Shown: positions 1-18,344, counted from the stretch's first letter. The stretch is DNA of 64,000 nucleotides from an uncultured Nitrospiraceae bacterium (GCA_964402555.1 CAYOCT010000001.1:204049-268048), one strand, 5' to 3'. A program made the numbers and translations. The notes: a model not told the origin generated them from the sequence alone.

Positions 1-194
1 CCGCATGCCGGCGTGCGTTGCGTCTCAACACCTTGAGCTACAAGAGCGTCGAGTCGATCCTTGCCCGCGGCCTCGAGAACCAACCCTTGCCCGAATCCGC
101 CGCAGCGGCGCCGCCCATCGCGCACAAGAACCTGCGCGGACCTCAGTATTACCAACCCTCCAACGAGACGAAAGGAGAACCTGTACTGTGTTGA
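1..194 (+). CDS. istA: IS21-family transposase IstA, C-terminal fragment (5' end outside window)
   Basis: Frame-3 translation ...HKNLRGPQYYQPSNETKGEPVLC* reaches a stop at 192-194, 11 nt before the istB ATG. This is the typical IstA C-terminus. Confidence 0.55.
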   Translation, partial: ACRRALRLNTLSYKSVESILARGLENQPLPESAAAAPPIAHKNLRGPQYYQPSNETKGEPVLC

Positions 195-205
195 CGAACC
201 CCACC

Positions 206-943
206 ATGGAACGACTGGCCGAACTCAAGCTCACCGGGATGCTCAAAAGCTACCAGGAGCAATGCGAATCGACCCAGGCCGACGCGTTGACCTTCGACGA
301 ACGTTTCGGCCTGCTCGTCGATCGCGAACACGCCGAACGCTACAACCGAAGCCTCGCCGCCCGGCTACGCAAAGCCAAGTTGCGGTTCCCGGCCGCCCTC
401 GAGGACGTGGACTACCGCCAGCCCCGAGGCCTCGACAAGCGCCTGCTGTTGGCGCTCGCCTCGGGCGACTGGATACGCCGCCACCACAACTGCATCCTCA
501 CCGGACCCACCGGCGCAGGCAAGACCTACCTCGCCTGTGCGCTGGGCCATCAGGTCTGCCGCGAGGGATACACCGTGCGCTACCACCGCATCCCACGGCT
601 CTTCCAGGAACTCGCGCTCGCCAAAGGCGACGGACGCTACCCCAAACTCATGCGGGCGCTGGCCAAGGTCGACCTGCTGATCCTCGACGACTGGACGACG
701 GCGCTCCTGACGGACGAACAACGAAGAGACCTCTTCGAGATTACCGAGAACCGCTACGGCCGCTGCTCCACGCTCATCGCCGCCCAACTACCGCTCAACC
801 ACTGGCACGAACTCATCGGCGATCCCACCCTCGCCGACGCCATTCTTGACAGACTCGTGCATAACGCCCACACCATCGAACTGAAAGGAGATTCCATGCG
901 AAAGAAAAAGAACAGCTTGAACCCGACCCCAGACGCCGACTAA
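206..943 (+). CDS. istB: IS21-family helper ATPase IstB
   Basis: Walker A LTGPTGAGKTYLACALG and Walker B LLILDDW. ATG at 206 (MERLAELK...) lies inside the longer ORF 5..943. Confidence 0.85.
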   Translation: MERLAELKLTGMLKSYQEQCESTQADALTFDERFGLLVDREHAERYNRSLAARLRKAKLRFPAALEDVDYRQPRGLDKRLLLALASGDWIRRHHNCILTGPTGAGKTYLACALGHQVCREGYTVRYHRIPRLFQELALAKGDGRYPKLMRALAKVDLLILDDWTTALLTDEQRRDLFEITENRYGRCSTLIAAQLPLNHWHELIGDPTLADAILDRLVHNAHTIELKGDSMRKKKNSLNPTPDAD

Positions 944-1095: not shown

Positions 1096-2169
1096 CGCAA
1101 AAGCCTCGAGGCTGAAGTCCGCACGCTTGTCGACGCGATTGCGCCAGATTTGAAGAACAGCGTTGTACCCGAAGCAATTGAGGAATTGCAACGGCGGTCC
1201 GGAAACGACAAGGAGGCCGTAACGCAGCAGCGTGAAAATAGCAAACAACAGATAGAAGCCAAGAAACGACTGGATGGCGCTCACTCGACGCTGGCGGAAG
1301 CGAATCGCGTTCTGGCGCGACTGTGCCAAGACGCCGGGTGCGCCGAACCCGAACAACTGGACCAGATCGAACAGAAATCCACGGAACGGCGCCGGCTGAT
1401 GGCGGAGATCGAGCAACTGGAAGAAGCCCTGCAGGAGATCGCGAAAGGAATGCCATTGGAGAAGCTGGCTGAGGAAGCATCGGGCGTGGACGGCGATGCC
1501 CTTCCTGCGCTGATTAGCTCCGCTAATGAGAGGATCGAATCGTTGCGCGAAACAAAGGACCAAGAGAACCGGAACATTGGCCAGGTCACCGAGAAGATTG
1601 CGGCGTTGCAGGGCCGCTCGGGGGCGGCGCAGGCGGCCGAGACAGCCCAGGAATATCTCGCGCTGATCGAAGAGAAGTCCCGGCAATACATCAAGCTGAA
1701 ACTGGCATCAATAGTTTTGCGCGCCGAGGTCAAGAAGTACCAGACCATCAACCAAGGCCCGCTGATGGCCCGTGCGGGTGAGCTCTTTGCCCGCTTGACA
1801 CTCGGTTCGTTTACGAGTCTCAGTGTCGGCTACAGCGAAAAAGACGAACCCTACCTATTGGGGGTTCGGCCGTCTGAAGACACTGTACCAGTAGAAGGCA
1901 TGAGCGACGGGACGCGAGACCAGTTATACTTATCTTTGCGCCTTGCGACTCTGGAAAAGTTTCTGGACAACAGTGAGCCTATGCCGTTTATTGTAGACGA
2001 TATCTTGATTCGTTTTGACGACGAACGAGCAAAAGCAACCTTGGACGTTCTGGCGGAATTGGCGAAGAAAACTCAGGTGTTGTTCTTCACGCACCACGCT
2101 CGCCTGTTTGAGTTTGCCCAATCCCCGGGAATGGCGGGGAAGGTGCGTGCGTTGGCGCTGCAAAACTAG
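1096..2169 (+). pseudogene. YhaN/SbcC-like AAA ATPase, C-terminal half only, truncated by the IS21 insertion
   Basis: Coiled coil followed by the signature SDGTRDQLYLSLRLA and D-loop FIVDDILIRFDD. No N-terminal Walker A. The reading frame is open back to the IS end. Confidence 0.6.
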
Positions 2170-2205: not shown

Positions 2206-3090
2206 CTACCATTGGCCGTCGGCAAATGCTTGTTCTATCCTGGTGTCACGTCGAAAGTCCTTGAGAAAGAGTTCCTCGACGTAATCTATAGGGATGTGAA
2301 TGCCCATGTATCCCTCGACGCCCTTCTTGAATCCTACGTTTAGGCCAAGCGTCGGATCGATGACTTCTCCGGTTTCGTCGACAAGCCAGGCGTGAGCCTC
2401 GACGATGTCCAAGACTGAGACGAAGCCCTCGTGATACTGAAGAGCCGGAATAAGCTTTGCGATTCGCTGACAGTTTTCAAAGCACAGTTGGCTTTCGCAA
2501 TCGTAGAATCTTGCGAACTCTCTGGATAAGCCCCATTTGACCGTTCTGAACTCACGGGCCACGTCAAGAAAGTGATCGCAAAGACGAATATTCTCACGCT
2601 CGTCCTGAATCTTCTCCATAAGTAGAACGTAGTGCCTGATGCTCTGCAAGGGTTCATGAGGCATGGCTTGTGGAGCCAAGGCGCTCGCGAACCTGCTTCT
2701 CGGCACATAGACAAAGCTCTGCGGAGGCTTGAAGCCGCGCGACACTCTAGCCAGGCGCAAGGGAACCTCCAACGGAGTCACTTCACCAAGAACCAGGGCT
2801 ATGCCCCGCGCGTTGCCGTCGAAATAGTCCATGAACTGGGCACGTTTGATGCCGGCTTTTTTGTGGTATCGTTTCCAGATAGTTTCAGGCGATGCCTCAT
2901 GTGTGTCCAAGACTTGGCAAAGAGCCACGATCTTACGTATTGGCGAGGTCGCGTAGAGGGCGATCATCTTGACAGGGCGTGTCATGCGCGTCTTTCGAAA
3001 TTCCACTCGTTTTTCGCCCCGCAGGATGGCGTTCGCAAATTCCGGATGTATCGATAGCAGGGCTATATCTTTAGTTTCGTTCGAAGCCAT
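2206..3090 (-). CDS. ASCH (PUA-like) domain fused to a transglutaminase-like cysteine protease domain
   Basis: ASCH motif GxKxxExR present as RGEKRVEFR. C-terminal Cys...His...Asp pattern CFENC ... EAHAWLVDETGEVIDPT resembles the transglutaminase core. Confidence 0.55.
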   Translation of the reverse strand: MASNETKDIALLSIHPEFANAILRGEKRVEFRKTRMTRPVKMIALYATSPIRKIVALCQVLDTHEASPETIWKRYHKKAGIKRAQFMDYFDGNARGIALVLGEVTPLEVPLRLARVSRGFKPPQSFVYVPRSRFASALAPQAMPHEPLQSIRHYVLLMEKIQDERENIRLCDHFLDVAREFRTVKWGLSREFARFYDCESQLCFENCQRIAKLIPALQYHEGFVSVLDIVEAHAWLVDETGEVIDPTLGLNVGFKKGVEGYMGIHIPIDYVEELFLKDFRRDTRIEQAFADGQW

Positions 3091-4532
3091 TCTGCGCCTT
3101 TCTTGCTTATCGCCATGATGGATTGTGGCGGCTTCACGAACACGGCATTGTCTTGGGCCTCTTTCGTGCTGATCGGTGGCTGCAGCACTAAGGCCTGTCT
3201 GAACAAGATGACCAGAACATCCTTCTTAGAGAGTTCTTGGATATCGGCCAGACTATAGACGGTTCGCTTGGCCACAAGTCGAGTGATCTCTTCCCAAGAT
3301 TTTGAGACAACGGCACGTTCCACGACGCCAATTGCGATGAGACCTTGGTGCTGCTGGGACCGATAGAACACAATGACGCTGCCCGGCTCAATTGTCCGAA
3401 TCGAAGAATGGCAGAGGTACGCCTTGCGAATCGCGCTGCCGAATGGGTGCTCTCCATGGAAAAGATCACCTTGTACAGCGGACTCGGGGAAGAGTAGTCG
3501 CGCGAACCCCGGCTGAATGGGAACAAGAAAAGTTCGCCCCTCAGCCATCTCAAGATAGTGTGGGCCGTATCTTACGTGACGCTGAAGCCCATCAAGTTGA
3601 CCAGTCTCCGCAGCAACAACCTGCATAGGCTTCGCGAGAATCAGTTCGCCCAACTCTGTCTTAGAAGGCACGTCTTGAAATCCGCATTCTCGAAGAAGAT
3701 CCAATAGCTCGTCATGCTTTCGGAAGACGGTAACAAAGAGCCAATCGAACCAATTGCCACAGGAGTATTCGAAGACTGTTTTCAAGAGCAGTTCGCCGTA
3801 CTTCAATCCCTGAAAACGCTCTGCCACCTTGAACGAACACACTTTCAAGACCTTACCCGTCAAGGGCGCAGGTGGCTCGCTCTCGTGCTTGATAATGCAG
3901 AAAGCAGCAATTCCCTCCGAATCACCGGGCACGAACCAAGCCTGACGCTGCTGCCGCTTGCACTTCACGAGCCACTTGTCGAAATCCGCGTAATCCTGTC
4001 GGAAGGTCTCAAAGATAGTATCGTTGGCATCGAGAGCGTGAACAAGTGTAGCCTCCACGACGGGCGGCGGACTGGACGGCTTGGCCGCGAGGTCCTCAAT
4101 CACCTGGATGCTATCGAGCAGGCTGAGGGTACGGTCGGACAATCCAAGCCGCTTTGCTTTTCGTTGCAACCCCACGTCTTGCGTGACCAACCAATCGACG
4201 GCGTCAGCACGAAGGGCCGCCAGCATCAGATTGTCAATGTAATCGTTGCTGCCAGCTAACGCCTTTCCAACGATGCGTTCCACCTCGTCAGGGATAGCTG
4301 GCGGGTGCGGTAATTCGGCGTACTTCTTAAGCAACTGCACGCGAAGTGTGCGACGGTCTCCGTCCTTGTCTTTTGAAAGATCGACGAGGGAGGCCGGGTG
4401 CACGCATATCTGGTGTGCGTTTTCCGAAATAAGGCGAACGAAACGGACCGCGGGCTCTGTTGTCGCCTCAACATCGGCAGGCGATGTCGGTTCAAGCGGA
4501 ATCAGGATATTTGTGTCAACGAGGAATTTCAC
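3063..4532 (-). CDS. PIN-domain protein with a C-terminal alpha/beta domain of unknown function
   Basis: N-terminus MKFLVDTNILIP (PIN-like). GTG start preceded by AAGGTGG. Overlaps both neighbours. Confidence 0.5.
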   Translation of the reverse strand: MKFLVDTNILIPLEPTSPADVEATTEPAVRFVRLISENAHQICVHPASLVDLSKDKDGDRRTLRVQLLKKYAELPHPPAIPDEVERIVGKALAGSNDYIDNLMLAALRADAVDWLVTQDVGLQRKAKRLGLSDRTLSLLDSIQVIEDLAAKPSSPPPVVEATLVHALDANDTIFETFRQDYADFDKWLVKCKRQQRQAWFVPGDSEGIAAFCIIKHESEPPAPLTGKVLKVCSFKVAERFQGLKYGELLLKTVFEYSCGNWFDWLFVTVFRKHDELLDLLRECGFQDVPSKTELGELILAKPMQVVAAETGQLDGLQRHVRYGPHYLEMAEGRTFLVPIQPGFARLLFPESAVQGDLFHGEHPFGSAIRKAYLCHSSIRTIEPGSVIVFYRSQQHQGLIAIGVVERAVVSKSWEEITRLVAKRTVYSLADIQELSKKDVLVILFRQALVLQPPISTKEAQDNAVFVKPPQSIMAISKKGAEWLRTKLKI

Positions 4533-5151
4533 ACGCCACCTTGAACTTGCTGATGTCGATCACCCGCGCACCAAGAGCGATGAGATGAGAGTTGGAGGTG
4601 GATTCCATAGTGTAGAGCGTCTTGCGGGCCGCCAGGATTTCGCGGCACAGGGATTCGACTTCGCCGCCAAGTGAGGCGTGAGGAACGAGAACTTCATTGG
4701 CGATGGCTGCTATGAATGCATTGCGTTGACGGGCCGTATCTTTGGTCACTCGTCGCACGTTGGAGTCGAAAGGCGACAACAACAGTAAGCGGCCATCCGC
4801 AATTGGCGCGCGCCATTCGGTCGGAACGCGCATATCTTGGATGGATCGGGCGGGACACACGATCACGGCTTGTTTCCCGCGGAGCAGTAGGTCGAGGCAT
4901 TCCTTTTCCATGGGTGAGTGGAAGCCGCCGATCACCGTCACGCCGGCGTCACGCAGCGCGCGGGCGGTGTCGTAGGTCTTCAGGACGAGGTCTCCGGGGC
5001 ATTTCACGGAACAAAGCAGTCCCAGCATCTTCCCCTGAAGGATGGCGATGTTGCCAAGAGCATCAATGAATTCAGGGGCAGCCAAGCCCGCAGAACCCTT
5101 CAACGCGTGCGGGTAATGGGAATCGCCTTTCAGGATTCGCCGAGTCTCCAT
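4516..5151 (-). CDS. DprA/Smf-like SLOG-superfamily Rossmann-fold protein (short form)
   Basis: VIGGFHSPMEKE, AVIVCPARS and LLLLSPF segments resemble the DprA/LOG-type Rossmann core. Confidence 0.45.
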   Translation of the reverse strand: METRRILKGDSHYPHALKGSAGLAAPEFIDALGNIAILQGKMLGLLCSVKCPGDLVLKTYDTARALRDAGVTVIGGFHSPMEKECLDLLLRGKQAVIVCPARSIQDMRVPTEWRAPIADGRLLLLSPFDSNVRRVTKDTARQRNAFIAAIANEVLVPHASLGGEVESLCREILAARKTLYTMESTSNSHLIALGARVIDISKFKVACEIPR

Positions 5152-5307
5152 GATTCCTGCCTATCCGGAATGTGTCATCGTCATGTCGCGCCACCAGTTC
5201 GCGAAGACGGCAGATCAGATCCTGTGGGTGGCACATTATCGAGCGGCCTGATATCGAGCAGGCTGGCAATGAGGCTGCTCGATAATGCATCGAGGCTGCT
5301 CGATATC

Positions 5308-6954
5308 TTAAGTGGTTCGCACATAACGTCTTCCGCGTTTAGAACCTTCTGCTTTCAGCCACCCGGACTCAATGAGTCGTTGGGCTATCCGGTTCGCGCT
5401 AAACGGCGAGACGCTGAGAATCTCGCGAATATCCTGGTTCGTTACAAACCCTTTGTCAGCAAGAATAGGCACCAAAGCCACGTATTCAGGCGGTTTTTCC
5501 GCTGGCCCTCTCGACCCCGGAGATGCTACGAGCTCGTAAACACGGCCGCCTTTCTTGGGCAGTTTGACGACGCCTTTGCGGATAAGGTCTTTGATCTCGC
5601 GCGATGCCGTGTAGAGGTCCGCGCCCACCAAACCTTGGTAGTCGCGGCTGGTGAACGCATTCGAATGTTCTCTCGCATAGGCCAGGATACGTTTCTGATT
5701 GCCGTTCAGGTCCAGATGCCTGAGCTCCCCGAGCCACCGCAGCGTGTCCTGCCGGTACGCCACTGTGTTCCGGAGCGTGACAGTGAATATGGCGCCCGCT
5801 TCGAGCCGGATCTCCGGCGGATAGAGCCCCTCACGTTCCATCGCCTCGAAAATACGGGGGATTCCCTCGCCCTGTTCGCGCATATAGCCGAAGTCGGTCA
5901 ACACGCGAACAATCCGGGGATTCCGCGACGCGTGAATCCGTTCCCGTTTCAGCAGACGGTCCAGCGTGACAGGCTCAACCAGTTCCCCTGGACTCCGGAT
6001 CTCCAGCCGGTCGTCGAACATCCAGACCTCGATGCCCAGGCCCTCGTACCGGTAATCCCGGTGTGCCACGGCATTGACGATGGCTTCCTGCCAGGCAAAT
6101 GACGGGTACTCCAGCCGTTCCTCGAAGAAGAGGTCCACCAAACGTTGGCGTTCCCGCACGTGCGGCCGAATGGTCTCGTATGCCTTCTCGATGAGAAGCG
6201 CCAGCGGCGCCTCAATCCGTTCGCGCTTGACGATGTTGAGTTCGGCGCCCACCCGGCGCTCGGCCCCTTCGTACTTCACGAAGTCGATGCCACACCGTGG
6301 GTGCCACCGTCCGGGGTCCTTGCCAAAGAGCAGCAGCGCCGCAAACGTCAATGCCGTCTTACCGTTGCGCCCTTCCGTGAGGCGATATCGCGAAAGGAGG
6401 TCTTGTGGCGAAGCCTGAACCCCCAGACGTTCCGCCAACCTGTTCACGAGCGTCAGGTCGAGATCGCCAAGCGTCGCTTCAGAGACGAACCGCGTTTCGG
6501 TCACGCGCCGGCGTTTCCCTTCCTTCATCGCTTCGATGTCGCGAGCCGGAAACGGAACGTTCTCATCGTCAACGCGCAGCAGATACCGGCCGTCCGTCAG
6601 TTGATGGACATCCATACTCCAGTCCACCTCGAACACCAGCACCGGTTTGCCTTCCAGCTTACCTTCGTGGACCCGAGGGCGAAGCGACGGACGAACGTGC
6701 GTCTTGGGGGCCGATTTCAAGACCTTAAGCCGGTCTTCGGGGAAATCCGCGCCGGACACCGTGCCGTCATCTTCGACGCCGACAACCAGTGCCCCGCCAT
6801 CCGCGTTGGCCATGGCCGTCAAAGTCTCCGCTATGTCCCGCGCCACATCGCGGGCGGCCCGGCGTTTCGGCCTATGGCCTGACCGGTCAAGACAGCTCTT
6901 CCGTTCAAAAAACTGGCCTTCCGTCTGATGAACAATCCAACCAAGCTCGTTCAA
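5308..6954 (-). CDS. Schlafen-like AlbA_2 (divergent AAA) plus HATPase_c_4 putative regulator with C-terminal wHTH
   Basis: N-terminus MNELGWIVHQTEGQFFERKS. C-terminus RILAYAREHS...KKGGRVYELV is typical of this family. Confidence 0.7.
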   Translation of the reverse strand: MNELGWIVHQTEGQFFERKSCLDRSGHRPKRRAARDVARDIAETLTAMANADGGALVVGVEDDGTVSGADFPEDRLKVLKSAPKTHVRPSLRPRVHEGKLEGKPVLVFEVDWSMDVHQLTDGRYLLRVDDENVPFPARDIEAMKEGKRRRVTETRFVSEATLGDLDLTLVNRLAERLGVQASPQDLLSRYRLTEGRNGKTALTFAALLLFGKDPGRWHPRCGIDFVKYEGAERRVGAELNIVKRERIEAPLALLIEKAYETIRPHVRERQRLVDLFFEERLEYPSFAWQEAIVNAVAHRDYRYEGLGIEVWMFDDRLEIRSPGELVEPVTLDRLLKRERIHASRNPRIVRVLTDFGYMREQGEGIPRIFEAMEREGLYPPEIRLEAGAIFTVTLRNTVAYRQDTLRWLGELRHLDLNGNQKRILAYAREHSNAFTSRDYQGLVGADLYTASREIKDLIRKGVVKLPKKGGRVYELVASPGSRGPAEKPPEYVALVPILADKGFVTNQDIREILSVSPFSANRIAQRLIESGWLKAEGSKRGRRYVRTT

Positions 6955-6979
6955 AGCGATCTATCTCCCGCTGGTGGTT

Positions 6980-8044
6980 TCACTTTCCTTCCCTTAATAC
7001 CTTCTCGTATTGACCAGGTTTCTTCATCTCTGCAATGAGGAACTTTTTCCATGATTCCGTGTAGACGTAGTCTCGATGGGCTTCATCGTATTGACAGAAC
7101 TGCGTATTCGTTGCTCGAGGATCGCCATTTCCCGTTCGGGGACGAACCTTATAGAATTGACAGGCGCGGACGTGGTGATAACTGGCGTTGAACTTCACGC
7201 TGACGCCCCCAACCTGTTGCACGATCGGTTCGACGGCCCTGCAGATGTCACCCGGCCTCAGACCTCCCGGATTAACTACCTGTGTGACAGATGGCTTAAT
7301 GAAGGCAACCAGTTTTTCGTACTTCGCCATCTCCTGCGGATTCGACGGGTCATATTTCACGAATTCCACGGCAATGTCGGCCTGCCCGGGATTGTTGGCC
7401 AGTTTCGGGATCAAGAAGACTTTGTAACTGTACCTCATGTCGTTGAGGATTTCCGTCCCGAGACCGGATCGAAACCGCGTGACGTACTGAGCCACGTTCT
7501 CTGAAAGCGAGCCGTGAAGTCGCGCAATCGCCTTTGCTTGGCCGTCTTCCCGCAAGTGCGAGAATTGAAGGGCTAGAGCGGGCGCTTCGTGAAGCATGTA
7601 TTTCGCCCCGAACTCGCGAAAGAGGGTGTCCTCGAAGTTGAAAAGAAGAGCCTGGCATTCCCCAAATATGCCCTGATCGAGCGCGGGCATCGATCGATGC
7701 TCAATCTTGTTCCTCAAACCAACGAAGAACTGGAGGTTCGCGCGTTCCGGCGGGTGGTTACTTGCGAAATACTGATCGATGCACTCGCCTAGTTCCCACG
7801 CCTTGTAGTCCCCGTCAATCTTCTTGTATCGACTAGGATGCAGTGGATCTTTGTAAAAAGGTTTGACCTTTCGAGCGAAGAAGATGGCGTGGAAGAGGCT
7901 GGTCCAGGCAATACACATAAGCACAATGAAGCCGCCGGACCTGAACTTCGTGGCTGGCTTGTTGTACACCTCCACTGCAAGCACCGCCGATTCGCGCGCT
8001 TTTTCCACGTGTTCCTTGACGACTGCCGGTAAACCTTTGGGCAT
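6980..8044 (-). CDS. Hypothetical protein (possibly DUF3644-like N-terminus)
   Basis: 354-aa ORF with uniform coding signal. No firm motif. Confidence 0.45.
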   Translation of the reverse strand: MPKGLPAVVKEHVEKARESAVLAVEVYNKPATKFRSGGFIVLMCIAWTSLFHAIFFARKVKPFYKDPLHPSRYKKIDGDYKAWELGECIDQYFASNHPPERANLQFFVGLRNKIEHRSMPALDQGIFGECQALLFNFEDTLFREFGAKYMLHEAPALALQFSHLREDGQAKAIARLHGSLSENVAQYVTRFRSGLGTEILNDMRYSYKVFLIPKLANNPGQADIAVEFVKYDPSNPQEMAKYEKLVAFIKPSVTQVVNPGGLRPGDICRAVEPIVQQVGGVSVKFNASYHHVRACQFYKVRPRTGNGDPRATNTQFCQYDEAHRDYVYTESWKKFLIAEMKKPGQYEKVLREGK

Positions 8045-8290: not shown

Positions 8291-10258
8291 TCAATACCTT
8301 CTTGTTCCCCTTTCGTGCAAATTAATACTGGAAACCAAATTCCCGGTAAACCCCCAGCTTCTTCCCAGTTCCGCAACCGCTAAAGTCCATTCCTCGTCGG
8401 CGGGTAGCTCCTCATCGCGCCAAGTGAGGCTATAGAAGACTCCTGCGCATATTTCTGCGATCAGTTCCCTGAATTCTTCTTCGGAAAAGTTCCTGATTTT
8501 GTCGCGGTTGATCCAAATTTTATGTCCGCTTTCTTCAATCGCAGCAGTCTGGAACTCCCCAGGCGGCAAAAAGTCTATCTGTCGGAATCCCTCCGGAAGG
8601 ACAGGCGGCACAAAACCTACGTATTGATAATCAGACAGTATCATTCTGGGGCCACGACTCCCCCAATAATACAAAAGCCCTCGGAGCACATCGTCTTTCA
8701 AAGACGCAATTGTAGAACAGATCCACCCCAAGTAAGTCTTGTCCTGGTCACTATGGATGTTACCATAGAACCGGAGCATGAACTTATCGCCATAATTAAT
8801 CGAAATCTCCGTGTCCATGCAGCGCTCGCTGCTGTATTGCGTCCCTTCTCCTGCGGCTTCCGGCTCTAGCTCGAAATCTGGCCGCGCGGCATCGTCGTAC
8901 ATGCCAAGATATGGCTTGAGATATCGTTCACCGTAGACTTCGTTCAGCAGCATGGCGTGTTCCGGACTTGTGCTGCTCTCGATCTCGTCCAAATGTCCGA
9001 GGAAATCGTCCTTGTTCCGAAGAGAATAGATGCGCGTTCCATAATCACTGAGGACATCACGCATGAGGCTGTCGCTCAGTATTCCATGGCTTTCCTTGTC
9101 CAAAAACATCGCGTCGCAATACGGCAGGAATGTTTCAATGAAGCGGACGTCGTTGTGAAGACCTCTGGTCGGCAGACGCCTCTGGCCGGCGTGTGCGGCC
9201 CTGTTCGCGACAGTGGCCCAGATCATGGAACCGATTTTCACAAAGGGGAGCGAGGCAAAATGCTCAGACTGGAGAAACTCCCAGGCCTTCGGGAGCCACT
9301 CGTCCTCGCCAAGTCCCTTCTTCATCAAAGCGTCGCGGAACCGCATCATCACGCCGGCCTCATGTGTAGGCAGAAAAGCTGCGGCGGCACTCAGACTAAC
9401 TTGTTGAGTGCTGATTATCTCCGCTTGTGCCTTGGCCATCTCGCTGAATTGCCGAAATAGGCCTCGGAGATAGTTCTTGCCGGCGCCACCTGTTTCTTCA
9501 CGTACCCAAAAATCGAACGACTTATCCTGATCGCGCTGCCACTGCTCGAATACGGTTCGAAGCTCTTCGGCAACAGCGTCACGTGCCTCGCGCAGTTCCT
9601 TGATAGCGTCTGGAGACCATCGAAAACTCGATGAGACATTGAAGTGGTCTGTCCACCCCGTGCGATCCCCATGCAGAAAATCATCCCTGCCAAATCTGCT
9701 CTTCTGAGGTCCATGCCCAGCCAGCCAGTGTTCGAACGCCTCCGTAATGAGCCAACTGTGAATCGTCTCCGTGTCAAACCACGTTACGCCATAGCTAAGC
9801 AGCTCGTATGTCCCCTTCAGCGCATTGTATAAACTGCTGGTAGCCGACTCCGAATCGTGGAGATCAGAACTAGGGCACACCAGTAACTGCTTTTTCCCCA
9901 ACAGGTCAAGGCGCGCGAATACCTCTCTGAAGAAGGCCTCATTAGGATTTCGTCCGTGCTGCTTTGTCGCAGAATTCAGCGCGAACATCATGTTGCTTAT
10001 CACGAATTGGTCGAGGTACAGGACCTTCTTGTCAAGCTTCGGCAAACGGGTTGGCTCGTACCACTCCGGATGGGTCGGGTAAAGGCAATTTCGACACCGT
10101 CGGGAGTACTGGTGACCGGCAATGCAAATTACCCCAAAGACATCCTCGCCGCACTTCGGACACCGGATATAAGGAGGATTTACAAAATCGTTCGGCCGAA
10201 TGGTTACATATGCGGCGTCATCTGACGGTCCGCCTGTTACTTCTTCCGGGGGTGTCAT
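8291..10258 (-). CDS. Hypothetical 655-aa protein with N-terminal Zn-ribbon
   Basis: CPKCGEDV...C...CRNC cluster. Start overlaps the methyltransferase stop by 4 bp. Confidence 0.55.
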   Translation of the reverse strand: MTPPEEVTGGPSDDAAYVTIRPNDFVNPPYIRCPKCGEDVFGVICIAGHQYSRRCRNCLYPTHPEWYEPTRLPKLDKKVLYLDQFVISNMMFALNSATKQHGRNPNEAFFREVFARLDLLGKKQLLVCPSSDLHDSESATSSLYNALKGTYELLSYGVTWFDTETIHSWLITEAFEHWLAGHGPQKSRFGRDDFLHGDRTGWTDHFNVSSSFRWSPDAIKELREARDAVAEELRTVFEQWQRDQDKSFDFWVREETGGAGKNYLRGLFRQFSEMAKAQAEIISTQQVSLSAAAAFLPTHEAGVMMRFRDALMKKGLGEDEWLPKAWEFLQSEHFASLPFVKIGSMIWATVANRAAHAGQRRLPTRGLHNDVRFIETFLPYCDAMFLDKESHGILSDSLMRDVLSDYGTRIYSLRNKDDFLGHLDEIESSTSPEHAMLLNEVYGERYLKPYLGMYDDAARPDFELEPEAAGEGTQYSSERCMDTEISINYGDKFMLRFYGNIHSDQDKTYLGWICSTIASLKDDVLRGLLYYWGSRGPRMILSDYQYVGFVPPVLPEGFRQIDFLPPGEFQTAAIEESGHKIWINRDKIRNFSEEEFRELIAEICAGVFYSLTWRDEELPADEEWTLAVAELGRSWGFTGNLVSSINLHERGTRRY

Positions 10259-13200
10259 CCGCCTTCCCCCTCAGCGTCATCATCGTCAGCTGTATCCTGG
10301 CCCAGCCGAAATTTGATGTCGAAGTTGATGATGAAATCCACTTCCTCATCATTGAAGCCAAAGTGGTCGGCCAAGATGACATCTATCTTGTCGATATCTG
10401 ACTTAGACAAGCGCGGGTAGAATTCGTCGTATTCTACGACACCTGTTCTTTGGTAAGGAATCCGTCTCCGCGCTCGGTTCTTACGGAGACTCTTCATCAG
10501 ATTTTGTCCGGCCGCGCGCAACGGCCCCCCGTACGACTTCGCCAAGGCAGGCAAGTCTAGAGGAAAATCGAGGATAATTTCCCTGCCGCAGTGATATACG
10601 TCTGAGTACGTCACAAACCACTGATAGAACAAGCTGCTGTTGAGGATGGCAACCAACGCGGCCTGTTGTGCCTCAGCGGCAGCGCCAAAGATCTTGTAGT
10701 CTTCGGAACGTTTGATGCCGTCCCTTTCGCTGGAGAAATAAGGCACAAAATCCATCGCCTTAACAAAATGGGCTACTATTCTGTGACTGTACACTTCATG
10801 ATGTGACCTCTCGCTCACAAACAGGCCGAGAGACCTTTTCTCAGAACACAGCTTCGAGAGGAGCGAGAGATGAGTATCCGAATAAATCTTCGGTCTAAGA
10901 CTGACTCGGGTAAGGTGACTGCCGGATTGTGTGTACTGAATTAATGGAAAGAGCGAATCACGACCATCGGCGTACCAACGCTGGAAACGTGTGCTGAATT
11001 CAGTTGGCGAAAGCAAGTTCTTTGCTTGCAGCAAAATCGCCAGGCGGAATTTTACGCCGTTGAACAAAATAGACGGATGAGCGTCGCCTGAGTAAAAGCT
11101 TGCATGCGTCAGCAAGTGGCTGTTCACCCAAGTATCCCGTAGTGGTCGCATGCGTTCGGTAGCCACACAGCTTACCGGGACAATCATTCCAAACTTGCCG
11201 CGAGCGGATAACAATGCATACGACCGCTCGCAGATCACAGTGTAGACATTTCCACATGAAAGAGTTGCGTAACTGGCCGGAATCGGCCGGTAACCTTGAA
11301 CTTTGCTCCATTCTACATAGGGTGGATTGCCAATGATAACGTCAAAACCGCCGCCGTTCATGATGCTGTAGAACTCGATGAACCAGTGAAAGGGATGATA
11401 TGAATTCACCCACTTGCGGAACTCGGTTTCATAGGCCTTCTTCGGCCTGACGCTTTCGACTCCAATTCCATATTCTTCCGCAAGATAACGATTCAGTTCG
11501 TTCTCGAGATCTTGAAGGCGCCTCTGAAGCTCCAGCTTGTGTTCCGTGGGTACCGATGTATCACCTTCGGTCTGACGCTTTCGGAATGCATCAAAAGTTT
11601 GTTGCAAGTCAGCTGCCTTAACAGTAATTGTCTCCATCTTGTCGTCAAAGTCGAACTTGCTCTTGACGGTCTTTTCGACTTCGAGGTAGGTGGCATAGCC
11701 AATGAGCGTGTTTCCGGAGCGGATGTTGAAATCTATGTCCGGCAGGGGCTCAATGCCAAGGTTTTCTCGTACGGGATCTGGATTGACTTGTGCGGCGAGC
11801 TTGAGGAAAAGGCGGAGCTTACAGATTTCGACGGCCTCGTCCATGATATCGACACCGTAGAGGTTGTTGATCACTATGGACTTGAGGACGAAATAGCGTC
11901 GGTTAGGGTGTTTGTCCATTTCGTCCAGCACCTCGCGGAAATCGCTGAGCTTCTTCGGGCTGTGCTTCCGTTCGGAGTGCTCAAGGTCTTCGAGTAATCC
12001 CTGCATGCCGTCGAGGCAGGCGTTGTAGAGCGGTTCGAGGATGTTGAGCGCGGCGAAGAGGAAGGCGCCTGACCCGCATGTGGGGTCGAGAATCGAGATG
12101 CGTGCAAGCGCCTTCCAGAACGCGCGGACGAGTTCCGGTCCTTCGCTGTTGACTATGGCGTCATCGGCAAACTGCTCGATGTCGAGGTTCAGGGTAACGA
12201 AGTCGTTGATTGCCTGGATTCCGCCAGCGGCCAGCTTCTCTCGCAACTCGAGACACCGTTTCCGTCGTTCGGCATACTCACGCCAGGTTTCCGTAGGCAA
12301 CGCGAGATCTTCGCCATCAGGACCGGGGACGCTGGCTTGTCCCAGGTTGTACTGCCTGTTGAACATCCGTTTCTTCGGGTCGGCCATCCCCTCGCGAACG
12401 AACTCGGGCAACGTGGAATCCGGAATAATCGTTCCATCAGCGTTGACGACGCCAGAACGCACGGCCGGATAGATGTAGCGGTCGGCGTCATCACGAAGCA
12501 AGCGCCAGATGCCACCGTCCGGCCTAAATGCGATGGGACATTCCTTCTGTGCGGCGTCGAACAGATACGGGATGATGGTATTGCGACCGATATAGCCGGT
12601 GATGTCCTCCTTCGTGTAATAGGCGCCCATCTGCTTCTGGTTGATGTACTTCTCGAAGATGTAGCCGAGAACGTCCGGATTGATTTCGTTGTCGGCACGC
12701 AACGGGCGTTCGTCGAGGTGCCAGGTGTAGCTGTCGAAGAAGTCGAAGATGGCCACGAATGCTTCATCGGGGATGTCGATGCCGCTATACTGCCGCTCAA
12801 GCTCGTGCACATCGAACAGGCCACCGTTCAGGTAAGGCACTCTGCCCAAGAGCGCTTCAAGGTCGCGCGCGCGGTCTTTGGCCGGCTTGCCAAGTCCTTC
12901 GTGGAACAGACGCAGCAGGAAGAAACGATAGAATGAAAGGAATTTGCCCTTGCCTCGGCGTTCCTGGACCATCTTGAGGCGGTTGCGGAGGTAATCGGGA
13001 TCGCCGTCGAGGAATCCACGCTTCTGGATGAAGTAGACAAACATCATCCGGTTGAGCATGAGCGAGGCGTACCAGTCACGATCCGTCCGCTCGTCAATGC
13101 CTTGGATGAATTTGAGGAAAGTCTGGTGCTCTTTCTTGAAGCGGTCATAGAAGCGTTTCGTGACGCGCTCGACATCCAGCGCCGAACGTGTACGCGCCGT

Positions 13201-13653
13201 CACGTCGGTGATGGTGAGGCGCTCTTCTTCCTCAAGCTCGAATGCCAGCCCTTGAAGTTTCTCGACGAGCGCCTGCCCGGTCTGATCCGCACGATACGTA
13301 TGTTCGCGGCACGCGGCTCCTTTGCCTGCCTGGCGCTTGACCCATTGCCAGATCTGGATCGTCTGCTTTGCATCGGTGAAGACGATCAGGTGCTCGTGGG
13401 CGGACTTGCGAGCCTGTTGTTCAATCTTGCGGCGAAGGGGATACGGTGGCGCCGCACCGTCCATGCTGGGACTACACACGTAGACGACCATGCCGCATTT
13501 CTCGGCGAGCGGTTTCAGAACGTAATCGGCGCCGGCAACGGAAACAACAAGAGGCTGCGCCGCATAGCAGTTCCAACCAAGTTCCTCAATCAATAGCCCG
13601 GTGAGGTCAAACTCTCTGAGGCGTTTGCGGACGTTCTCGACACTCACAGGCAT
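10255..13653 (-). CDS. N6-adenine DNA methyltransferase, Eco57I/PglX/type IIG-like, 1132 aa
   Basis: Motif I ILDPTCGSGAFL, motif IV VIIGNPPYV, and the conserved YLNGGLFD segment. Confidence 0.8.
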   Translation of the reverse strand: MPVSVENVRKRLREFDLTGLLIEELGWNCYAAQPLVVSVAGADYVLKPLAEKCGMVVYVCSPSMDGAAPPYPLRRKIEQQARKSAHEHLIVFTDAKQTIQIWQWVKRQAGKGAACREHTYRADQTGQALVEKLQGLAFELEEEERLTITDVTARTRSALDVERVTKRFYDRFKKEHQTFLKFIQGIDERTDRDWYASLMLNRMMFVYFIQKRGFLDGDPDYLRNRLKMVQERRGKGKFLSFYRFFLLRLFHEGLGKPAKDRARDLEALLGRVPYLNGGLFDVHELERQYSGIDIPDEAFVAIFDFFDSYTWHLDERPLRADNEINPDVLGYIFEKYINQKQMGAYYTKEDITGYIGRNTIIPYLFDAAQKECPIAFRPDGGIWRLLRDDADRYIYPAVRSGVVNADGTIIPDSTLPEFVREGMADPKKRMFNRQYNLGQASVPGPDGEDLALPTETWREYAERRKRCLELREKLAAGGIQAINDFVTLNLDIEQFADDAIVNSEGPELVRAFWKALARISILDPTCGSGAFLFAALNILEPLYNACLDGMQGLLEDLEHSERKHSPKKLSDFREVLDEMDKHPNRRYFVLKSIVINNLYGVDIMDEAVEICKLRLFLKLAAQVNPDPVRENLGIEPLPDIDFNIRSGNTLIGYATYLEVEKTVKSKFDFDDKMETITVKAADLQQTFDAFRKRQTEGDTSVPTEHKLELQRRLQDLENELNRYLAEEYGIGVESVRPKKAYETEFRKWVNSYHPFHWFIEFYSIMNGGGFDVIIGNPPYVEWSKVQGYRPIPASYATLSCGNVYTVICERSYALLSARGKFGMIVPVSCVATERMRPLRDTWVNSHLLTHASFYSGDAHPSILFNGVKFRLAILLQAKNLLSPTEFSTRFQRWYADGRDSLFPLIQYTQSGSHLTRVSLRPKIYSDTHLSLLSKLCSEKRSLGLFVSERSHHEVYSHRIVAHFVKAMDFVPYFSSERDGIKRSEDYKIFGAAAEAQQAALVAILNSSLFYQWFVTYSDVYHCGREIILDFPLDLPALAKSYGGPLRAAGQNLMKSLRKNRARRRIPYQRTGVVEYDEFYPRLSKSDIDKIDVILADHFGFNDEEVDFIINFDIKFRLGQDTADDDDAEGEGG

Positions 13654-16600
13654 GCATCATCTCCCTTGAACAGCCCCATGGAACAAATGATCCGCGGTTC
13701 GTGCGTTTGCGCTTCTTCCTCAACAAGGCACAGACGGCCTTCTTCGCGCAAAACCATGACCAATTCGGCCAGCTTCTGGTCGTCAATACCGAGTCGCAGT
13801 TGACGATTCAGGGCATCGGTTGCCACCTGACGGAGCGGGTATCGATAGATCTCATCAATGACGCGGTAAAGTTCGGGCGTCTCGAAAAGCGTTCCCTTGA
13901 TCTCCTCGGCATGCCGTTTGAGCCGTTCGTAAGTTCTAAACCGCGCGCCGCTGGGCCGGCCCAATTGCCCGCCGACCTGGCGTTCTTCCGTAGCGATATG
14001 CTGGATTGCTTCCCGCACGAGGGGGTGATGCCTGGGATTACGCGGAATAGCCGGAGTTTCGAGAGGGCATTCGGCGATTCGGAGGATTTCAAACTGGGAT
14101 TCTGTGATGCTGGCGCCGCCTGTGTCCACGTAAGCGAGGGCGTCGTTGTCTTCCGCCGTACGGGCATAGACGAGCACGCCTTCCGGCTTGCGTTCGGTCG
14201 GGGCGTGCGCGCGAGTTGAATAGGCCACGTCCGGCAGTTCGGGCACGATCTTTTCCAGTTCCGGATTGGAGTCAATGGCGTTCTTCCAGATCTGGTATGC
14301 GTATGACGCCAAGTCGACTTCCGCGTCATCCTCGCCGTCAAGGATACCGGCCTTTTCGGTAAACAGGTCGCGGACGCTCTGCTCGTTGTTATCGTCCTCG
14401 AAGAACGACTCATCCGTACCGACCACTTCGGCATTTTCGCGAAGTCTGCTGCGAACCCTGGAACGCAAGCGAATGATGCGCTCGACTCCCTCCGCGGGAA
14501 GGAATGAGTAACAGAGTATGTCCTCCGCTTTCTGACCGATACGGTCCACGCGGCCGGCGCGCTGGATCAGGCGAATGATAGCCCACGGTAGATCAAAGTT
14601 AACGACTATGGCGCAATCTTGCAGGTTTTGGCCTTCGCTCAAGATATCCGTGGCAACCAGCACGCGCAATTCCTGGGCCGGCGATATCCGGTCTCGCTTG
14701 TTGTTGCTGACCGGACTGAACCGCCACGCCAGTTCGGTTGGGTTCGCGGAATCGGAGGTTGCGCCCGCCACACCGTCTATACCCCTCGCCTTAAGCTGAG
14801 TCTCAAGATAGCGGACCGTATCCGCGAACTGTGTGAAGATTAGGACCTTCTCCATGGCATGTCGTTCGGCAAGCAGATCGACCAACGCCTGCAATTTGGC
14901 ATCGCGCTCTCGGTCCCATTCTCCTGTCCGGGCCAGCAGTTTGAGTAAGGCTTCCGCGTCCGCGCGCAGATGCTTGGCGAGTGCTTCAGTGAACAAGCCA
15001 GGCCTAATCCATTTGAAAGACTTGCGATGCTCTGTTTCGTAATCAACGTATACTTCTGCCGCACGACGCCGGAAATCAGCTTCATTGCGAAGCGTCGTCC
15101 CTGGGACAGAAGCGATAGGCTGGTCGTCGTTGTTGTCGGCGTCATCGGCAAACAGGTCGCTCGTGGCTTCTTCGGCATCCTCGTCAGTCATCCGAGTATC
15201 AAGCATTTCGGAAGTCTGTGAACCCAACGGCAGAGGCAGGCCGTTCTCGATGGCATGCAGGTAAACAAAATTACGCAGAATGTGCCGCTCGACGGACTGA
15301 ACGAAAGCCATGCCGCAGCTTTCAAGGCGTTTGAACAGGTTCGTGCGGCAGAATCCCATGAGCCGTTTCCCGGCGCGAGACAAGTCTTGCAGCACTCGCG
15401 CCTCGGCCTGGGTGGGCGGTTGCTCAGGAGTCGGCACTTCATAGTTGCCCAAGCCATAACGGGGCAAGTACAGTCCGTTGATGATATCCACAACGGGCTT
15501 GGCGTAAAGCTGGGCGTACTGATCGTTCTTGTCTTTGTCGTTGATTGTAAACTTCACCGTCCTTGGGAGACGTTCCGGGAAATATGAGCGCGTGCCGTCC
15601 TCAAACGTCAGATAACACCTGCCATTATCCGCGTCGACGGTAGCGTAATTGTCCTTGATGAAGCTGCGGGTCCGGCGCACGAGGTAGAGGCGCATCAAAT
15701 CGCGCCAGTCGTCGGCATGCTCGCTCTTCTCGAACGCGGAAAGCGACCTGACCGAACACTGATGCCGCCGGATGAATTCGGTCTCGCTGATTTGACGCAA
15801 TAACGCTTCCGGCCGGATTCCGATGTCACGATCTTCTTCAACGAACAGGCGCAGCTGGCTGGAGAGATCGAGGTAGGTCTTGTTGTACGGCGTGGCGGTC
15901 AGCAGGATGCACTTGCTGTCGTTCGCGCGGATGTAGTCCTGGATGACGCGGTAGCGGCGGCCTTCACGATTGCGCAGGTTGTGGCTCTCGTCCAAGATGA
16001 TGAGACGATAACGCCGGAGGTCAGGCAATTGTCTGATGACGCGGCTAATCGAGAGCACGCGTCCGCGAAGGCGATACTGTTCCCGGTAGTCTTCCCACAT
16101 GGAGACGAGATTCTTGGGACAGATGATTAGGGTTTCGAGATCGTGGTCATCCTCGAAGATGCGCGCAAGTGCGGTGGCCATGAGCGTCTTGCCGAGACCG
16201 ACGACGTCACCCACGAGCACGCCGTTTCGGCGCAGCAGATGATGCGCGGCGATCTTCACGGCAGCGACCTGGTAGTCGAAAAGCTTGTTGCCGAAATCCT
16301 TCGGAATGCGGAACTCAGACAGGCCGGAACGCGCCTCCCGCGACAGGTGATAGGCGATCTTGATGTAGATTTGATAAGGCGGAATCGGTTCCTCGCGAGC
16401 CCAGCTTTCGTCGATAATCGCGACCAACTCATTCGAGACGTCGATGCAGAAGCGGTCGTTCCAGCGATCCTCAAACCACTTCGCGAGTTTCTGGCACGCG
16501 TCGAGGTCCATGACGTCGATGTTGAGCTCGCCCTGATTCACGAGGCCGGCGAGCGTCAAGTTGCTGCTGCCCAGATATCCCACGATGGGGTTGATCGGGT

Positions 16601-17048
16601 CGGGACGGAAGAGCAGGTAAAGCTTGGCGTGAAGCGGATGCCGCAGGAAGAGCTTCACCACGACCTTCTTGGCGCGGATTTGCGCCACGAGGCGGCGAAG
16701 CGCTTCCTCATCTTCATTGGTGGGTGTGCCAAACGTAAGTTGCTGGCGAAATTCCTGCGCAAGCTGCTTCTTGAGGCGTGCCGCGGTAGCGTTGTCTATT
16801 TCGGCGCCGCCGTCGACGACGCTCATTGCTTCGCGTAACTGGTCTTGCGGTAAACGCTGCATTCCCACGAGAAGCCGGCAGCATTGCCCCGCATCGCTTC
16901 CTGCCCATTTCTCGACCTGGGTGTGAAGCTGCTTCCATCCGCGCAGATTGAAATAGCCGACGCAAAAGTCGGCCCGGTCGGAACGCGCGAGGGTTTCCTG
17001 CAGTGCCTTGGATAGATTGGCCTCGATGTTGTCGAAAACTCTAGGCAT
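13644..17048 (-). CDS. PLD-family nuclease domain fused to an SNF2-family helicase, 1134 aa
   Basis: HxK PLD motif HPLHAKLYLL. Helicase motifs GLGKT and DESHNLRN plus a C-terminal helicase block (NFDLPW). Overlaps the methyltransferase start by 10 nt. Confidence 0.8.
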   Translation of the reverse strand: MPRVFDNIEANLSKALQETLARSDRADFCVGYFNLRGWKQLHTQVEKWAGSDAGQCCRLLVGMQRLPQDQLREAMSVVDGGAEIDNATAARLKKQLAQEFRQQLTFGTPTNEDEEALRRLVAQIRAKKVVVKLFLRHPLHAKLYLLFRPDPINPIVGYLGSSNLTLAGLVNQGELNIDVMDLDACQKLAKWFEDRWNDRFCIDVSNELVAIIDESWAREEPIPPYQIYIKIAYHLSREARSGLSEFRIPKDFGNKLFDYQVAAVKIAAHHLLRRNGVLVGDVVGLGKTLMATALARIFEDDHDLETLIICPKNLVSMWEDYREQYRLRGRVLSISRVIRQLPDLRRYRLIILDESHNLRNREGRRYRVIQDYIRANDSKCILLTATPYNKTYLDLSSQLRLFVEEDRDIGIRPEALLRQISETEFIRRHQCSVRSLSAFEKSEHADDWRDLMRLYLVRRTRSFIKDNYATVDADNGRCYLTFEDGTRSYFPERLPRTVKFTINDKDKNDQYAQLYAKPVVDIINGLYLPRYGLGNYEVPTPEQPPTQAEARVLQDLSRAGKRLMGFCRTNLFKRLESCGMAFVQSVERHILRNFVYLHAIENGLPLPLGSQTSEMLDTRMTDEDAEEATSDLFADDADNNDDQPIASVPGTTLRNEADFRRRAAEVYVDYETEHRKSFKWIRPGLFTEALAKHLRADAEALLKLLARTGEWDRERDAKLQALVDLLAERHAMEKVLIFTQFADTVRYLETQLKARGIDGVAGATSDSANPTELAWRFSPVSNNKRDRISPAQELRVLVATDILSEGQNLQDCAIVVNFDLPWAIIRLIQRAGRVDRIGQKAEDILCYSFLPAEGVERIIRLRSRVRSRLRENAEVVGTDESFFEDDNNEQSVRDLFTEKAGILDGEDDAEVDLASYAYQIWKNAIDSNPELEKIVPELPDVAYSTRAHAPTERKPEGVLVYARTAEDNDALAYVDTGGASITESQFEILRIAECPLETPAIPRNPRHHPLVREAIQHIATEERQVGGQLGRPSGARFRTYERLKRHAEEIKGTLFETPELYRVIDEIYRYPLRQVATDALNRQLRLGIDDQKLAELVMVLREEGRLCLVEEEAQTHEPRIICSMGLFKGDDACL

Positions 17049-18265: not shown

Positions 18266-18344
18266 AACCCCCAGGCCCTTCTTGCCGCTTTGTGTATGGA
18301 ACGAAGCCAGGACATTCCTTGGCATCAACGACTGGAGGAAGCAA

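Follow-up and report, generated by a model that had tools for sequence, protein, structure and literature searches.

A PDC-M11 (PIN-GNAT-EVE and ASCH) cassette with a fused Cys-His-Asp domain beside a DprA-like gene in an uncultured Nitrospiraceae bacterium

Among the candidate defence systems catalogued by PADLOC, the PDC set holds 145 untested candidates that were found by "guilt by embedding", and one of these, PDC-M11, is a pair of genes also described as the (PIN)-GNAT-EVE + ASCH operon. Operons of PIN-GNAT-EVE proteins nearly always encode an ASCH protein and often adjoin restriction-modification (RM) and other defence systems; the operon was predicted to be toxin-antitoxin (TA)-like, and none of its modules had been characterised experimentally (PMC7641849, Bell et al. 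2020, building on Iyer et al. 2013). Here, a copy of this cassette is described from an uncultured Nitrospiraceae bacterium (GCA_964402555.1, CAYOCT010000001.1:204049-268048). The window, i.e., the whole 64,000-nucleotide stretch of DNA that was analysed, carries three overlapping genes on its minus strand: a gene for a short DprA-like protein, PDC-M11A, and a PDC-M11B gene whose ASCH domain is fused to a Cys-His-Asp domain.

Other described systems share single features with this locus. The toxins of the GNAT TA systems (AtaT-AtaR, KacT-KacA and TacT) acetylate aminoacyl-tRNA (PMC7641849), and their antitoxins are DNA-binding ribbon-helix-helix (RHH) proteins. For ASCH proteins, a 2026 preprint reports that 19 diverse members, all of those tested, strip N4-acetylcytidine (ac4C) from tRNA, and that in proteins of the GKER type this deacetylation requires both the Lys and the Glu of the GxKxxExR octapeptide. 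ZmASCH, which was earlier reported as a ribonuclease acting on single-stranded RNA, is among the weakest of these ac4C erasers. DprA-like proteins occur in PsyrTA and ShosTA, where ShosA is an antitoxin or sensor that binds single-stranded DNA (ssDNA) and RecA. Finally, in embedded-defence systems (Hma, BREX, type I RM; bioRxiv 10.1101/2024.01.29.577857), defence cassettes are found embedded among the core genes.

Identity and arrangement of the cassette

The second and third genes of the locus are a copy of PDC-M11. The second protein matches the PADLOC profile PDC-M11A over its full length (E 2.1e-169, residues 1-488 on profile positions 1-485 of 486), and the third matches PDC-M11B with an E-value of 1.6e-39 over residues 10-133 of its 294 residues only. 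The original prediction, made from the sequence alone, had grouped all three genes into one module and had not recognised the combination as a named system; this does not stand, as its second and third genes are the PADLOC candidate PDC-M11 and the PIN-GNAT-EVE + ASCH operon of PMC7641849. In addition to the matches to both component hidden Markov models (HMMs), the window shares with this operon the large protein with its GNAT, PUA-like and putative PIN domains, the downstream ASCH gene, the typical 28-nt overlap and the adjacency to RM-type systems. It differs from the rest of the family in two respects: its ASCH protein is extended at the C-terminus by a Cys-His-Asp domain that is absent from all other loci examined, and the cassette abuts the DprA-like gene. 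The locus is composite, consisting of a catalogued two-gene candidate, a one-off fusion on its ASCH gene and a neighbour gene that belongs to an adjacent restriction-type cluster. The identity of the cassette together with this composite reading is held with high confidence. As the best explanation overall, i.e., with the mechanism proposed below included, it is favoured with moderate confidence.

Conservation was assessed in 80 genomic loci with homologues of PDC-M11A from Acidobacteriota, Chloroflexota, Planctomycetota, Actinomycetota, Cyanobacteria and other phyla, 60 of which offered at least 2 kb of upstream and 62 at least 2 kb of downstream sequence. An ASCH gene lies immediately 3' of the PDC-M11A homologue in 78 of the 80. 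The large protein is nearly uniform in length, with more than 860 homologues of about 489 aa, and the ASCH partners elsewhere measure about 141-181 aa, which makes the fused protein of the window about double the usual size. The PIN-GNAT-EVE + ASCH cassette is thus widespread across many phyla, and it has been predicted twice as a conflict system. Clustering of all neighbours returned no third conserved gene. The next most frequent clusters occur in at most five of the 80 loci and resemble type I RM subunits, as judged by eye from N-terminal sequences with no profile search. For the same reason, the AAA_17 ATPase mentioned by Bell et al. was rejected as a conserved third gene of PDC-M11, no extra cluster exceeding five loci; a single ASCH-AAA_17 fusion (P0006) was observed. 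A phage-borne origin of PDC-M11A was likewise rejected, with only one match, at 33% identity, in 2.9 million viral contigs.

The coordinates of the open reading frames (ORFs) and their start and stop codons agree with the predicted arrangement of three minus-strand genes with overlaps of 17 and 28 nt (Table 1). The GTG start of PDC-M11A fits the consensus N-terminus of the family alignment, MKFLIDTNV, and a Shine-Dalgarno-like AAGGTGG sits shortly 5' of it. The two overlaps were found to be of a different kind. The one between PDC-M11A and PDC-M11B belongs to the family: of the 78 loci with the pair, 30 have an overlap of exactly 28 nt and 52 have one of 25-34 nt, and it exceeds chance. The 17-nt overlap between the DprA-like gene and PDC-M11A, on the other hand, is particular to the window. 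In L141, the sole other locus in which the genes follow in this order, the two are separated by 222 nt, and DNA homology between the window and a near relative (L084) stops at position 4556, directly past the conserved DprA-like core. Because of these two observations, the 17-nt overlap looks like the by-product of a recombination junction at which the 3' end of the DprA-like gene received different cargo. Tight gene overlap by itself can mislead about which genes belong together. No terminator-like site was found between the genes, and a conserved structured repeat array lies upstream of the DprA-like gene, so that the DprA-like gene is probably co-transcribed with the PDC-M11 cassette at this locus.

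The DprA-like gene and its restriction-type cluster

That the first gene encodes a DprA-type Rossmann protein of the SLOG superfamily, as originally predicted, was borne out by Pfam DNA_processg_A (36.3 bits against a cut-off of 29.6, E 4.4e-9), with a match that covers the Rossmann domain only (7-209/212). A bona fide DprA was ruled out, as the protein reaches 29.1 bits against the DprA equivalog TIGR00732, far below the cut-off of 191, and does not have the full SAM-Rossmann-DML1 architecture. It belongs to a family of more than 2200 short homologues of about 200-230 aa. In PADLOC, the antitoxin PsyrA matches it best (E 8.6e-22, profile positions 99-294 of 398), and the DprA Rossmann domain is what it has in common with PsyrA and ShosA. 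It differs from both in its length of only 211 aa without a SAM domain. Neither a RecQ-like PsyrT nor a phosphoribosyltransferase (PRTase) ShosT was found among the eight neighbours scanned, and the genes next to it encode a Schlafen-like protein and PDC-M11A. A further difference from PsyrTA and ShosTA is that the conserved neighbours of the family are a type IIG methyltransferase and a PLD-SNF2 helicase.

These neighbours were identified in a survey of 82 DprA-like loci, made up of 80 metagenomic loci, L084 and L085. The recurrent order is a PLD/SNF2 helicase, a type IIG-like Eco57I methyltransferase of about 1100 aa and the short DprA-like gene (L097, L110, L111, L130, L140, L148 and L163), and of the 27 loci that offer at least 3.4 kb of upstream sequence, 13 contain a type IIG gene. 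Cassettes are often inserted between the type IIG gene and the DprA-like gene, with a Schlafen-like gene in 14 loci and HEC-01A/B in five. What lies downstream of the DprA-like gene varies or is empty; Fic, PRiA4_ORF3, a metallophosphatase, GmrSD, an MBL-fold protein and a transposase-type helix-turn-helix (HTH) protein were encountered there. In the window, the minus-strand order is PLD-SNF2 helicase, type IIG methyltransferase, a 655-aa protein, DUF3644/PDC-S19, Schlafen-like protein, DprA-like protein, PDC-M11A and the PDC-M11B fusion.

The association of the DprA-like gene with PDC-M11 is, by comparison, rare. Profile HMM searches of all ORFs detected the DprA-like gene in none of the 80 PDC-M11 loci, and among the 35 DprA-like loci with at least 1.5 kb of downstream sequence only one has PDC-M11. 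L141 is the only other locus in which a type IIG gene, a DprA-like gene, PDC-M11A and PDC-M11B follow each other; its PDC-M11B carries no fusion, and its proteins share 37-51% identity with those of the window. In L084, which is a near relative at about 83% DNA identity, PRiA4_ORF3 occupies the place of PDC-M11. The DprA-like gene is foreign to the cassette because it is missing from the 80 PDC-M11 loci, has its type IIG and SNF2 partners upstream and is followed by PRiA4_ORF3 instead in L084; it is the terminal gene of the PLD-SNF2/type IIG cluster and not a conserved component of PDC-M11. The expected co-occurrence of the three genes in other genomes accordingly failed for the DprA-like gene, and it failed in the same way for the Cys-His-Asp domain (see below).

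A genuine three-gene system was weighed against this, with the DprA-like/SLOG protein as sensor or antitoxin controlling both the PIN-GNAT-PUA effector and the ASCH-protease protein, and sensing ssDNA or nucleotides in the manner of ShosA and PsyrA. The attractions of such a system are the 17-nt overlap and absent terminator, the structured conserved region upstream of the DprA-like gene that suggests a transcript of all three genes, the PsyrA match, the precedent of ShosA as an ssDNA-sensing antitoxin, the same gene order at 46-51% protein identity in the distant L141, and the several loci in which a DprA-like gene tightly abuts toxin-like genes (Fic, PRiA4_ORF3, metallophosphatase, GmrSD). 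However, neither survey found the genes together beyond that one locus, the recurrent partners of the DprA-like gene lie upstream, and many DprA-like genes with sufficient room have no same-strand gene directly 3' of them. The junction seen in L084 at the end of the DprA-like core and the 222-nt gap in L141 also speak against a joint system, which is regarded as highly doubtful. The more general idea that the DprA-like protein is an adaptor or antitoxin for variable downstream toxins was considered because of the same abutting Fic, PRiA4_ORF3, metallophosphatase and GmrSD genes. It was rejected as a general rule, since a same-strand gene is missing from the position directly downstream in many loci with enough sequence there, and recurrent partners occur only upstream.

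The helicase/type IIG methylase/DprA-like cluster is therefore regarded as a separate recurrent unit and as a landing pad for defence genes. No named system matched the trio. It resembles the embedded-defence systems in that cassettes (Schlafen-like, DUF3644/PDC-S19, HEC-01) lie between helicase and methylase core genes. It differs from them in its core, which consists of a PLD-SNF2 helicase, a type IIG-like methyltransferase and a short DprA-like gene instead of HmaABC, and in that PDC-M11 is appended past the last gene and not embedded. Clusters of this type with inserted or varying cargo were also seen in L133, L141 and L142, and in the window they span positions 4516-17048 (minus strand). 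A Schlafen gene with AlbA_2, HATPase_c_4 and winged-helix domains is the immediate upstream neighbour of the short DprA-like gene in at least ten other loci.

Domains of the two proteins and a possible mechanism

Three domains were assigned to the large protein PDC-M11A, namely a PIN-like domain, a GNAT domain and a C-terminal PUA-like domain that is EVE/ASCH-like and closest to ZmASCH. The original prediction of a PIN protein captured one of the three and overlooked the GNAT and the second ASCH/EVE-like domain. The AlphaFold2 model of the protein has a pLDDT score (predicted local distance difference test) of 88.8. For the PIN-like region, the prediction stands as far as the acidic residues are concerned, with D6, D100 and D119 invariant and E14 and D55 conserved. 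Strands alternate with helices in the model, which fits PIN. The profile evidence is below threshold, with PIN_3 at E 5.5e-4 and 21.2 bits over residues 3-120 against a Pfam cut-off of 27. PIN_3 matches seven of 32 family members, and no PIN structure was among the top 50 Foldseek matches of the model.

The GNAT domain was detected most consistently, as Acetyltransf_1 matches 31 of 32 family members with a best E-value of 4e-9. The window protein itself reaches 18.9 bits, against a cut-off of 20.7, with its GNAT signal at residues 178-285. Foldseek aligned this domain to NatD, PaiA, AtaT and KacT with a probability of 1.0, AtaT and KacT being TA toxins, and a G242..G246-E-L-L-L-K motif is invariant in the family. 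PDC-M11 resembles the GNAT TA systems in this fold and in its two-gene toxin/antidote layout. It differs in that its GNAT domain is flanked by PIN-like and PUA-like domains and in that its putative antidote is an ASCH enzyme-like protein, not an RHH protein; aminoacyl-tRNA is for PDC-M11A only a possible target.

At the C-terminus, the top PDB match in Foldseek was ZmASCH (5y6b/5guq, target template modelling (TM) score 0.77-0.81). Pfam EVE is weak on the window protein (E 0.084) and matches four of 32 family members. A profile-profile comparison with hhalign aligned this domain to the profile of the ASCH partners with an E-value of 1e-4 over the whole ASCH domain, including a common PPQS[FI] motif. 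The ASCH partner is homologous to the effector's own PUA-like reader domain.

In the partner, the predicted ASCH domain was upheld both by Pfam (22.2 bits against a cut-off of 21.2) and by the PDB entries of ZmASCH (5GUS/5GUQ, E 5e-18). The predicted RGEKRVEFR motif is present, with G25, K27, E30 and R32 as the positions of the octapeptide. Among 32 partners K27, E30 and R32 are invariant, and G25 is conserved in more than 90%. PDC-M11B therefore keeps the octapeptide with the Lys and Glu that are essential in the ac4C erasers. It differs from them and from ZmASCH in being paired with a candidate GNAT "writer" and, in the window, in being fused to a protease-like domain. ZmASCH (PDB 5GUQ/5GUS) is a near relative of the PDC-M11B partners, the nearest with a solved structure, and also the best structural match of the effector's C-terminal domain, and for these reasons the native role of ZmASCH may be that of a partner within a PIN-GNAT-EVE operon.

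In the proposed mechanism, PDC-M11A would be the effector or toxin. Its PUA-like domain would dock on a modified nucleic acid or on an RNA, which would most probably be tRNA. The GNAT domain would move an acetyl group from acetyl-CoA to the target, which could be a base (such as cytidine at N4) or an aminoacyl-tRNA, and the PIN domain would provide RNase activity. The ASCH partner with its Lys/Glu/Arg octapeptide would be the antidote, either erasing the acetyl mark or competing for the substrate. Phage infection would upset the balance of effector and antidote, and translation would stop. This model of a writer plus nuclease against an eraser is proposed because the partner keeps the residues for ac4C removal and is homologous to the reader domain of the effector, which also makes it concrete and falsifiable; the acetyl writer/eraser mechanism as such is put forward tentatively. 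DarT-DarG offers a parallel, as its toxin modifies nucleic acid by ADP-ribosylation of DNA and its partner enzyme removes the mark. The likeness lies in the proposed logic of a modifying toxin and a mark-removing enzyme only, since the modification is ADP-ribosylation of DNA and not the presumed acetylation, and DarT-DarG has no homology to PDC-M11.

Several points weigh against the interpretation given so far. No experimental paper on the function of PDC-M11 or GNAT-EVE was found in the literature, and the PIN and EVE assignments of the large protein fall below the Pfam cut-offs. ZmASCH is inactive on free ac4C and caused no drop of ac4C in vivo, and an eraser role may for this reason not extend to the present clade. 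Bell et al. hold that the ASCH proteins of these operons bind modified DNA and cite HTH-ASCH and HsdS-ASCH fusions (PMC7641849). The 17-nt overlap, the missing terminator and the distant L141 gene order moreover point to a possible functional link with the DprA-like gene.

The main alternative to the RNA mechanism is that the cassette acts on DNA. Its EVE/ASCH-like domains would then read modified phage bases, its GNAT would acetylate a DNA base or a protein, and the ASCH protein would be a DNA-binding regulator, which makes the cassette a modification-dependent accessory of the adjacent restriction-type system. Acetylation of DNA bases was proposed by Iyer et al. 2013 (as summarised in PMC7641849), and the HTH-ASCH and HsdS-ASCH fusions and the close RM linkage point in the same direction. 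So do the position of the window cassette directly after the type IIG/SNF2 cluster and the nearby genes in about five of the 80 loci that resemble type I RM by sequence, with no profile search. However, PIN domains are RNases, GNAT toxins of TA systems acetylate aminoacyl-tRNA (PMC7641849), and the 19 tested ASCH proteins all removed ac4C from tRNA. The catalytic K/E/R residues are also invariant in the partner and would be needless for a pure DNA-binding regulator. The DNA-directed reading is accordingly considered unlikely.

In the window, the putative antidote carries the Cys-His-Asp extension, which elsewhere is a protein of its own with about 150 aa or a module within multi-domain, toxin-like proteins. 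The reading frame is continuous from the ASCH into the Cys-His-Asp domain over a linker of about 15 residues, without a stop or frameshift. The transglutaminase-like Cys-His-Asp assignment holds at the level of fold and motif only. Cys203, His233 and Asp245 are present as predicted, the Cys stands at the N-terminus of a helix with the His and Asp on the following strands, and all three are conserved. Conserved positions in total include Cys203, Asn206, Tyr219, Gly222, His233, Trp235, Asp245-Pro-Thr, Tyr261 and Gly263. Profile searches gave no support, as residues 134-294 have no Pfam, PHROG or PDB sequence-profile match and no curated transglutaminase-core or peptidase profile is matched; one of 45 homologues reaches Transglut_core3 at E 0.13. 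In lacking any match to a Pfam transglutaminase or peptidase model, and in its minimal size of about 110-150 aa, the domain differs from the transglutaminase-like and papain-fold enzymes TglA, PeiW, LapG, NTAQ1 and OspI.

An HMMER scan yielded 244 representative homologues of the domain, mostly stand-alone proteins of 130-175 aa. Longer, multi-domain homologues (P0177, P0180, P0210, P0215, P0218 and P0233) pair the module with a Zeta toxin, ADP-ribosyltransferase, Mu-F, 2H/LigT, InPase, GNAT or prohead protease domain, and such architectures recall the "polyvalent" proteins of phages and conjugative elements. Among viral proteins, the nearest matches in structure (TM 0.67-0.69, E 9e-7) are uncharacterised, measure about 157 aa and come from uncultured tailed phages. 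No curated family covers the domain, which is a papain/transglutaminase-fold family within the gene pool of mobile elements. Profile HMM searches of all ORFs detected it in none of the 80 PDC-M11 and none of the 82 DprA-like loci, and in a search of 5.8 billion proteins the sole full-length match of the fusion protein was the query itself.

The fusion may be a functional gain, by which the antidote processes itself or senses or attacks a phage protein, or just as well the chance result of reading through into a hitch-hiking gene. A fusion without functional meaning could have arisen when a small mobile Cys-His-Asp gene, whose type phages also carry, came to lie just behind the ASCH gene and a stop codon was lost or the assembly is in error; alternatively, the second half is separately translated or decaying. 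In line with this, the fusion is the only one among 80 + 1 PDC-M11 loci and in the protein databases, and the closest homologue (P0002, 61% identity) is a stand-alone protein in an unrelated genomic context. The TTG codon of Leu148 aligns with the internal Met27 of P0002, a homologous start position, and the island shows other decay, i.e., the IS21 element and a truncated ATPase gene. The unbroken frame over the linker argues against it, as do the intact catalytic and conserved residues of the second domain. No Shine-Dalgarno-like motif precedes an internal ATG or TTG of the gene, and ASCH partners are known to gain domains (HTH, AAA_17, HsdS). A meaningless fusion of this kind is judged improbable.

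A joint reading, in which PDC-M11 is a TA defence based on reversible acetylation of nucleic acid and the window antidote additionally bears a working cysteine enzyme, is considered quite improbable when all its parts are taken together. The GNAT domain would mark cytidines of tRNA or other RNA, or charged tRNA. RNA marked in this way would be cleaved by the PIN domain, and the ASCH domain would erase the mark. If true, the window protein would be the first ASCH-protease antidote, with a cysteine enzyme that processes the protein itself or senses or attacks a phage protein. As a variant that arose in nature, the fusion lends itself to the question of how the antidote is regulated.

Repeat array and other features of the island

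The coordinates of all features are summarized in Table 1. The defence-island setting proposed for the locus was confirmed.

Table 1. Features of the PDC-M11 locus and its surroundings, in window positions
Feature	Position	Strand	Details
DprA-like gene	4516..5151	-	211 aa, ATG start, TGA stop
PDC-M11A gene	3063..4532	-	489 aa, GTG start, TAG stop
PIN-like domain of PDC-M11A, about residues 1-150	4083..4532	-	Pfam PIN_3 below threshold, conserved acidic residues
GNAT domain of PDC-M11A, about residues 160-305	3618..4055	-	Pfam Acetyltransf_1, Foldseek
PUA-like (EVE/ASCH-like) domain of PDC-M11A, about residues 333-489	3066..3536	-	without GxKxxExR motif; Foldseek, hhalign
PDC-M11B-Cys-His-Asp fusion gene	2206..3090	-	294 aa, ATG start
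ASCH domain of the fusion, residues 9-132	2695..3066	-	GKER octapeptide G25-K27-E30-R32
Transglutaminase/papain-fold domain of the fusion, about residues 148-294	2209..2649	-	Cys203, His233, Asp245
Overlap of DprA-like gene and PDC-M11A	4516..4532	-	17 nt, particular to the window locus
Overlap of PDC-M11A and PDC-M11B	3063..3090	-	28 nt, family-wide; AAGAAAGG, purine-rich stretch 5' of the PDC-M11B ATG
Repeat array between Schlafen-like and DprA-like genes	5234..5307	-	four copies of the 13-nt motif TATCGAGCRGSCT, long hairpin
Schlafen-like protein	5308-6954	-	AlbA_2 / HATPase_c_4 / winged-helix
DUF3644 protein	6980-8044	-	single-gene candidate PDC-S19, full length, E 1.5e-131
655-aa protein	8291-10258	-	4-nt overlap with the type IIG gene
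Type IIG-like Eco57I methyltransferase	10255..13653	-	PADLOC REase_MTase_IIG, 1082.8 bits, full length
PLD-SNF2 helicase	13644..17048	-	PLDc_2, SNF2 and Helicase_C domains
IS21 IstB helper gene	5-943	+	Pfam E 1e-74
Truncated ATPase-like ORF	1150-2169	+	match restricted to the C-terminal part of SMC/ABC-type ATPases (LmuB, mad3)
Replic_Relax (replication-relaxation) protein	18195-19286	+	
HerA/DUF87-type ATPase	24494-26593	-	

The repeat array upstream of the DprA-like gene lies directly past the stop codon of the Schlafen-like gene and consists of two direct and two inverted pairs (repeats D1/D2 and I1-I4). Its RNA is predicted to fold with -34.4 kcal/mol (z -5.4), without a U-tract, and the array is 88.6% identical in L084. 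A weak promoter-like site lies at 5178-5150. The array may be an operator array, an RNA structure or stabilising hairpin, a recombination site or the start of a transcription unit of the three genes.

The 655-aa protein has a Cys-rich, zinc-ribbon-like stretch at its N-terminus and no Pfam, PADLOC or NCBIfam match. A C-terminally truncated copy with 82.5% identity occupies the same position in L084, and the protein may be an uncharacterised embedded defence gene. L084 was found to be a deletion variant of the window island over 4556-10350, at about 83% DNA identity, from which the 655-aa gene's C-terminal third, the DUF3644 gene and the greater part of the Schlafen-like gene are missing.

On the other side of the cassette, the truncated ATPase-like ORF on the plus strand converges on the end of PDC-M11B and looks like a defence ATPase gene that was cut by the insertion sequence. 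Beyond the helicase gene, the Replic_Relax and HerA/DUF87 genes were detected, because of which the defence cluster may sit on an integrative or conjugative element.

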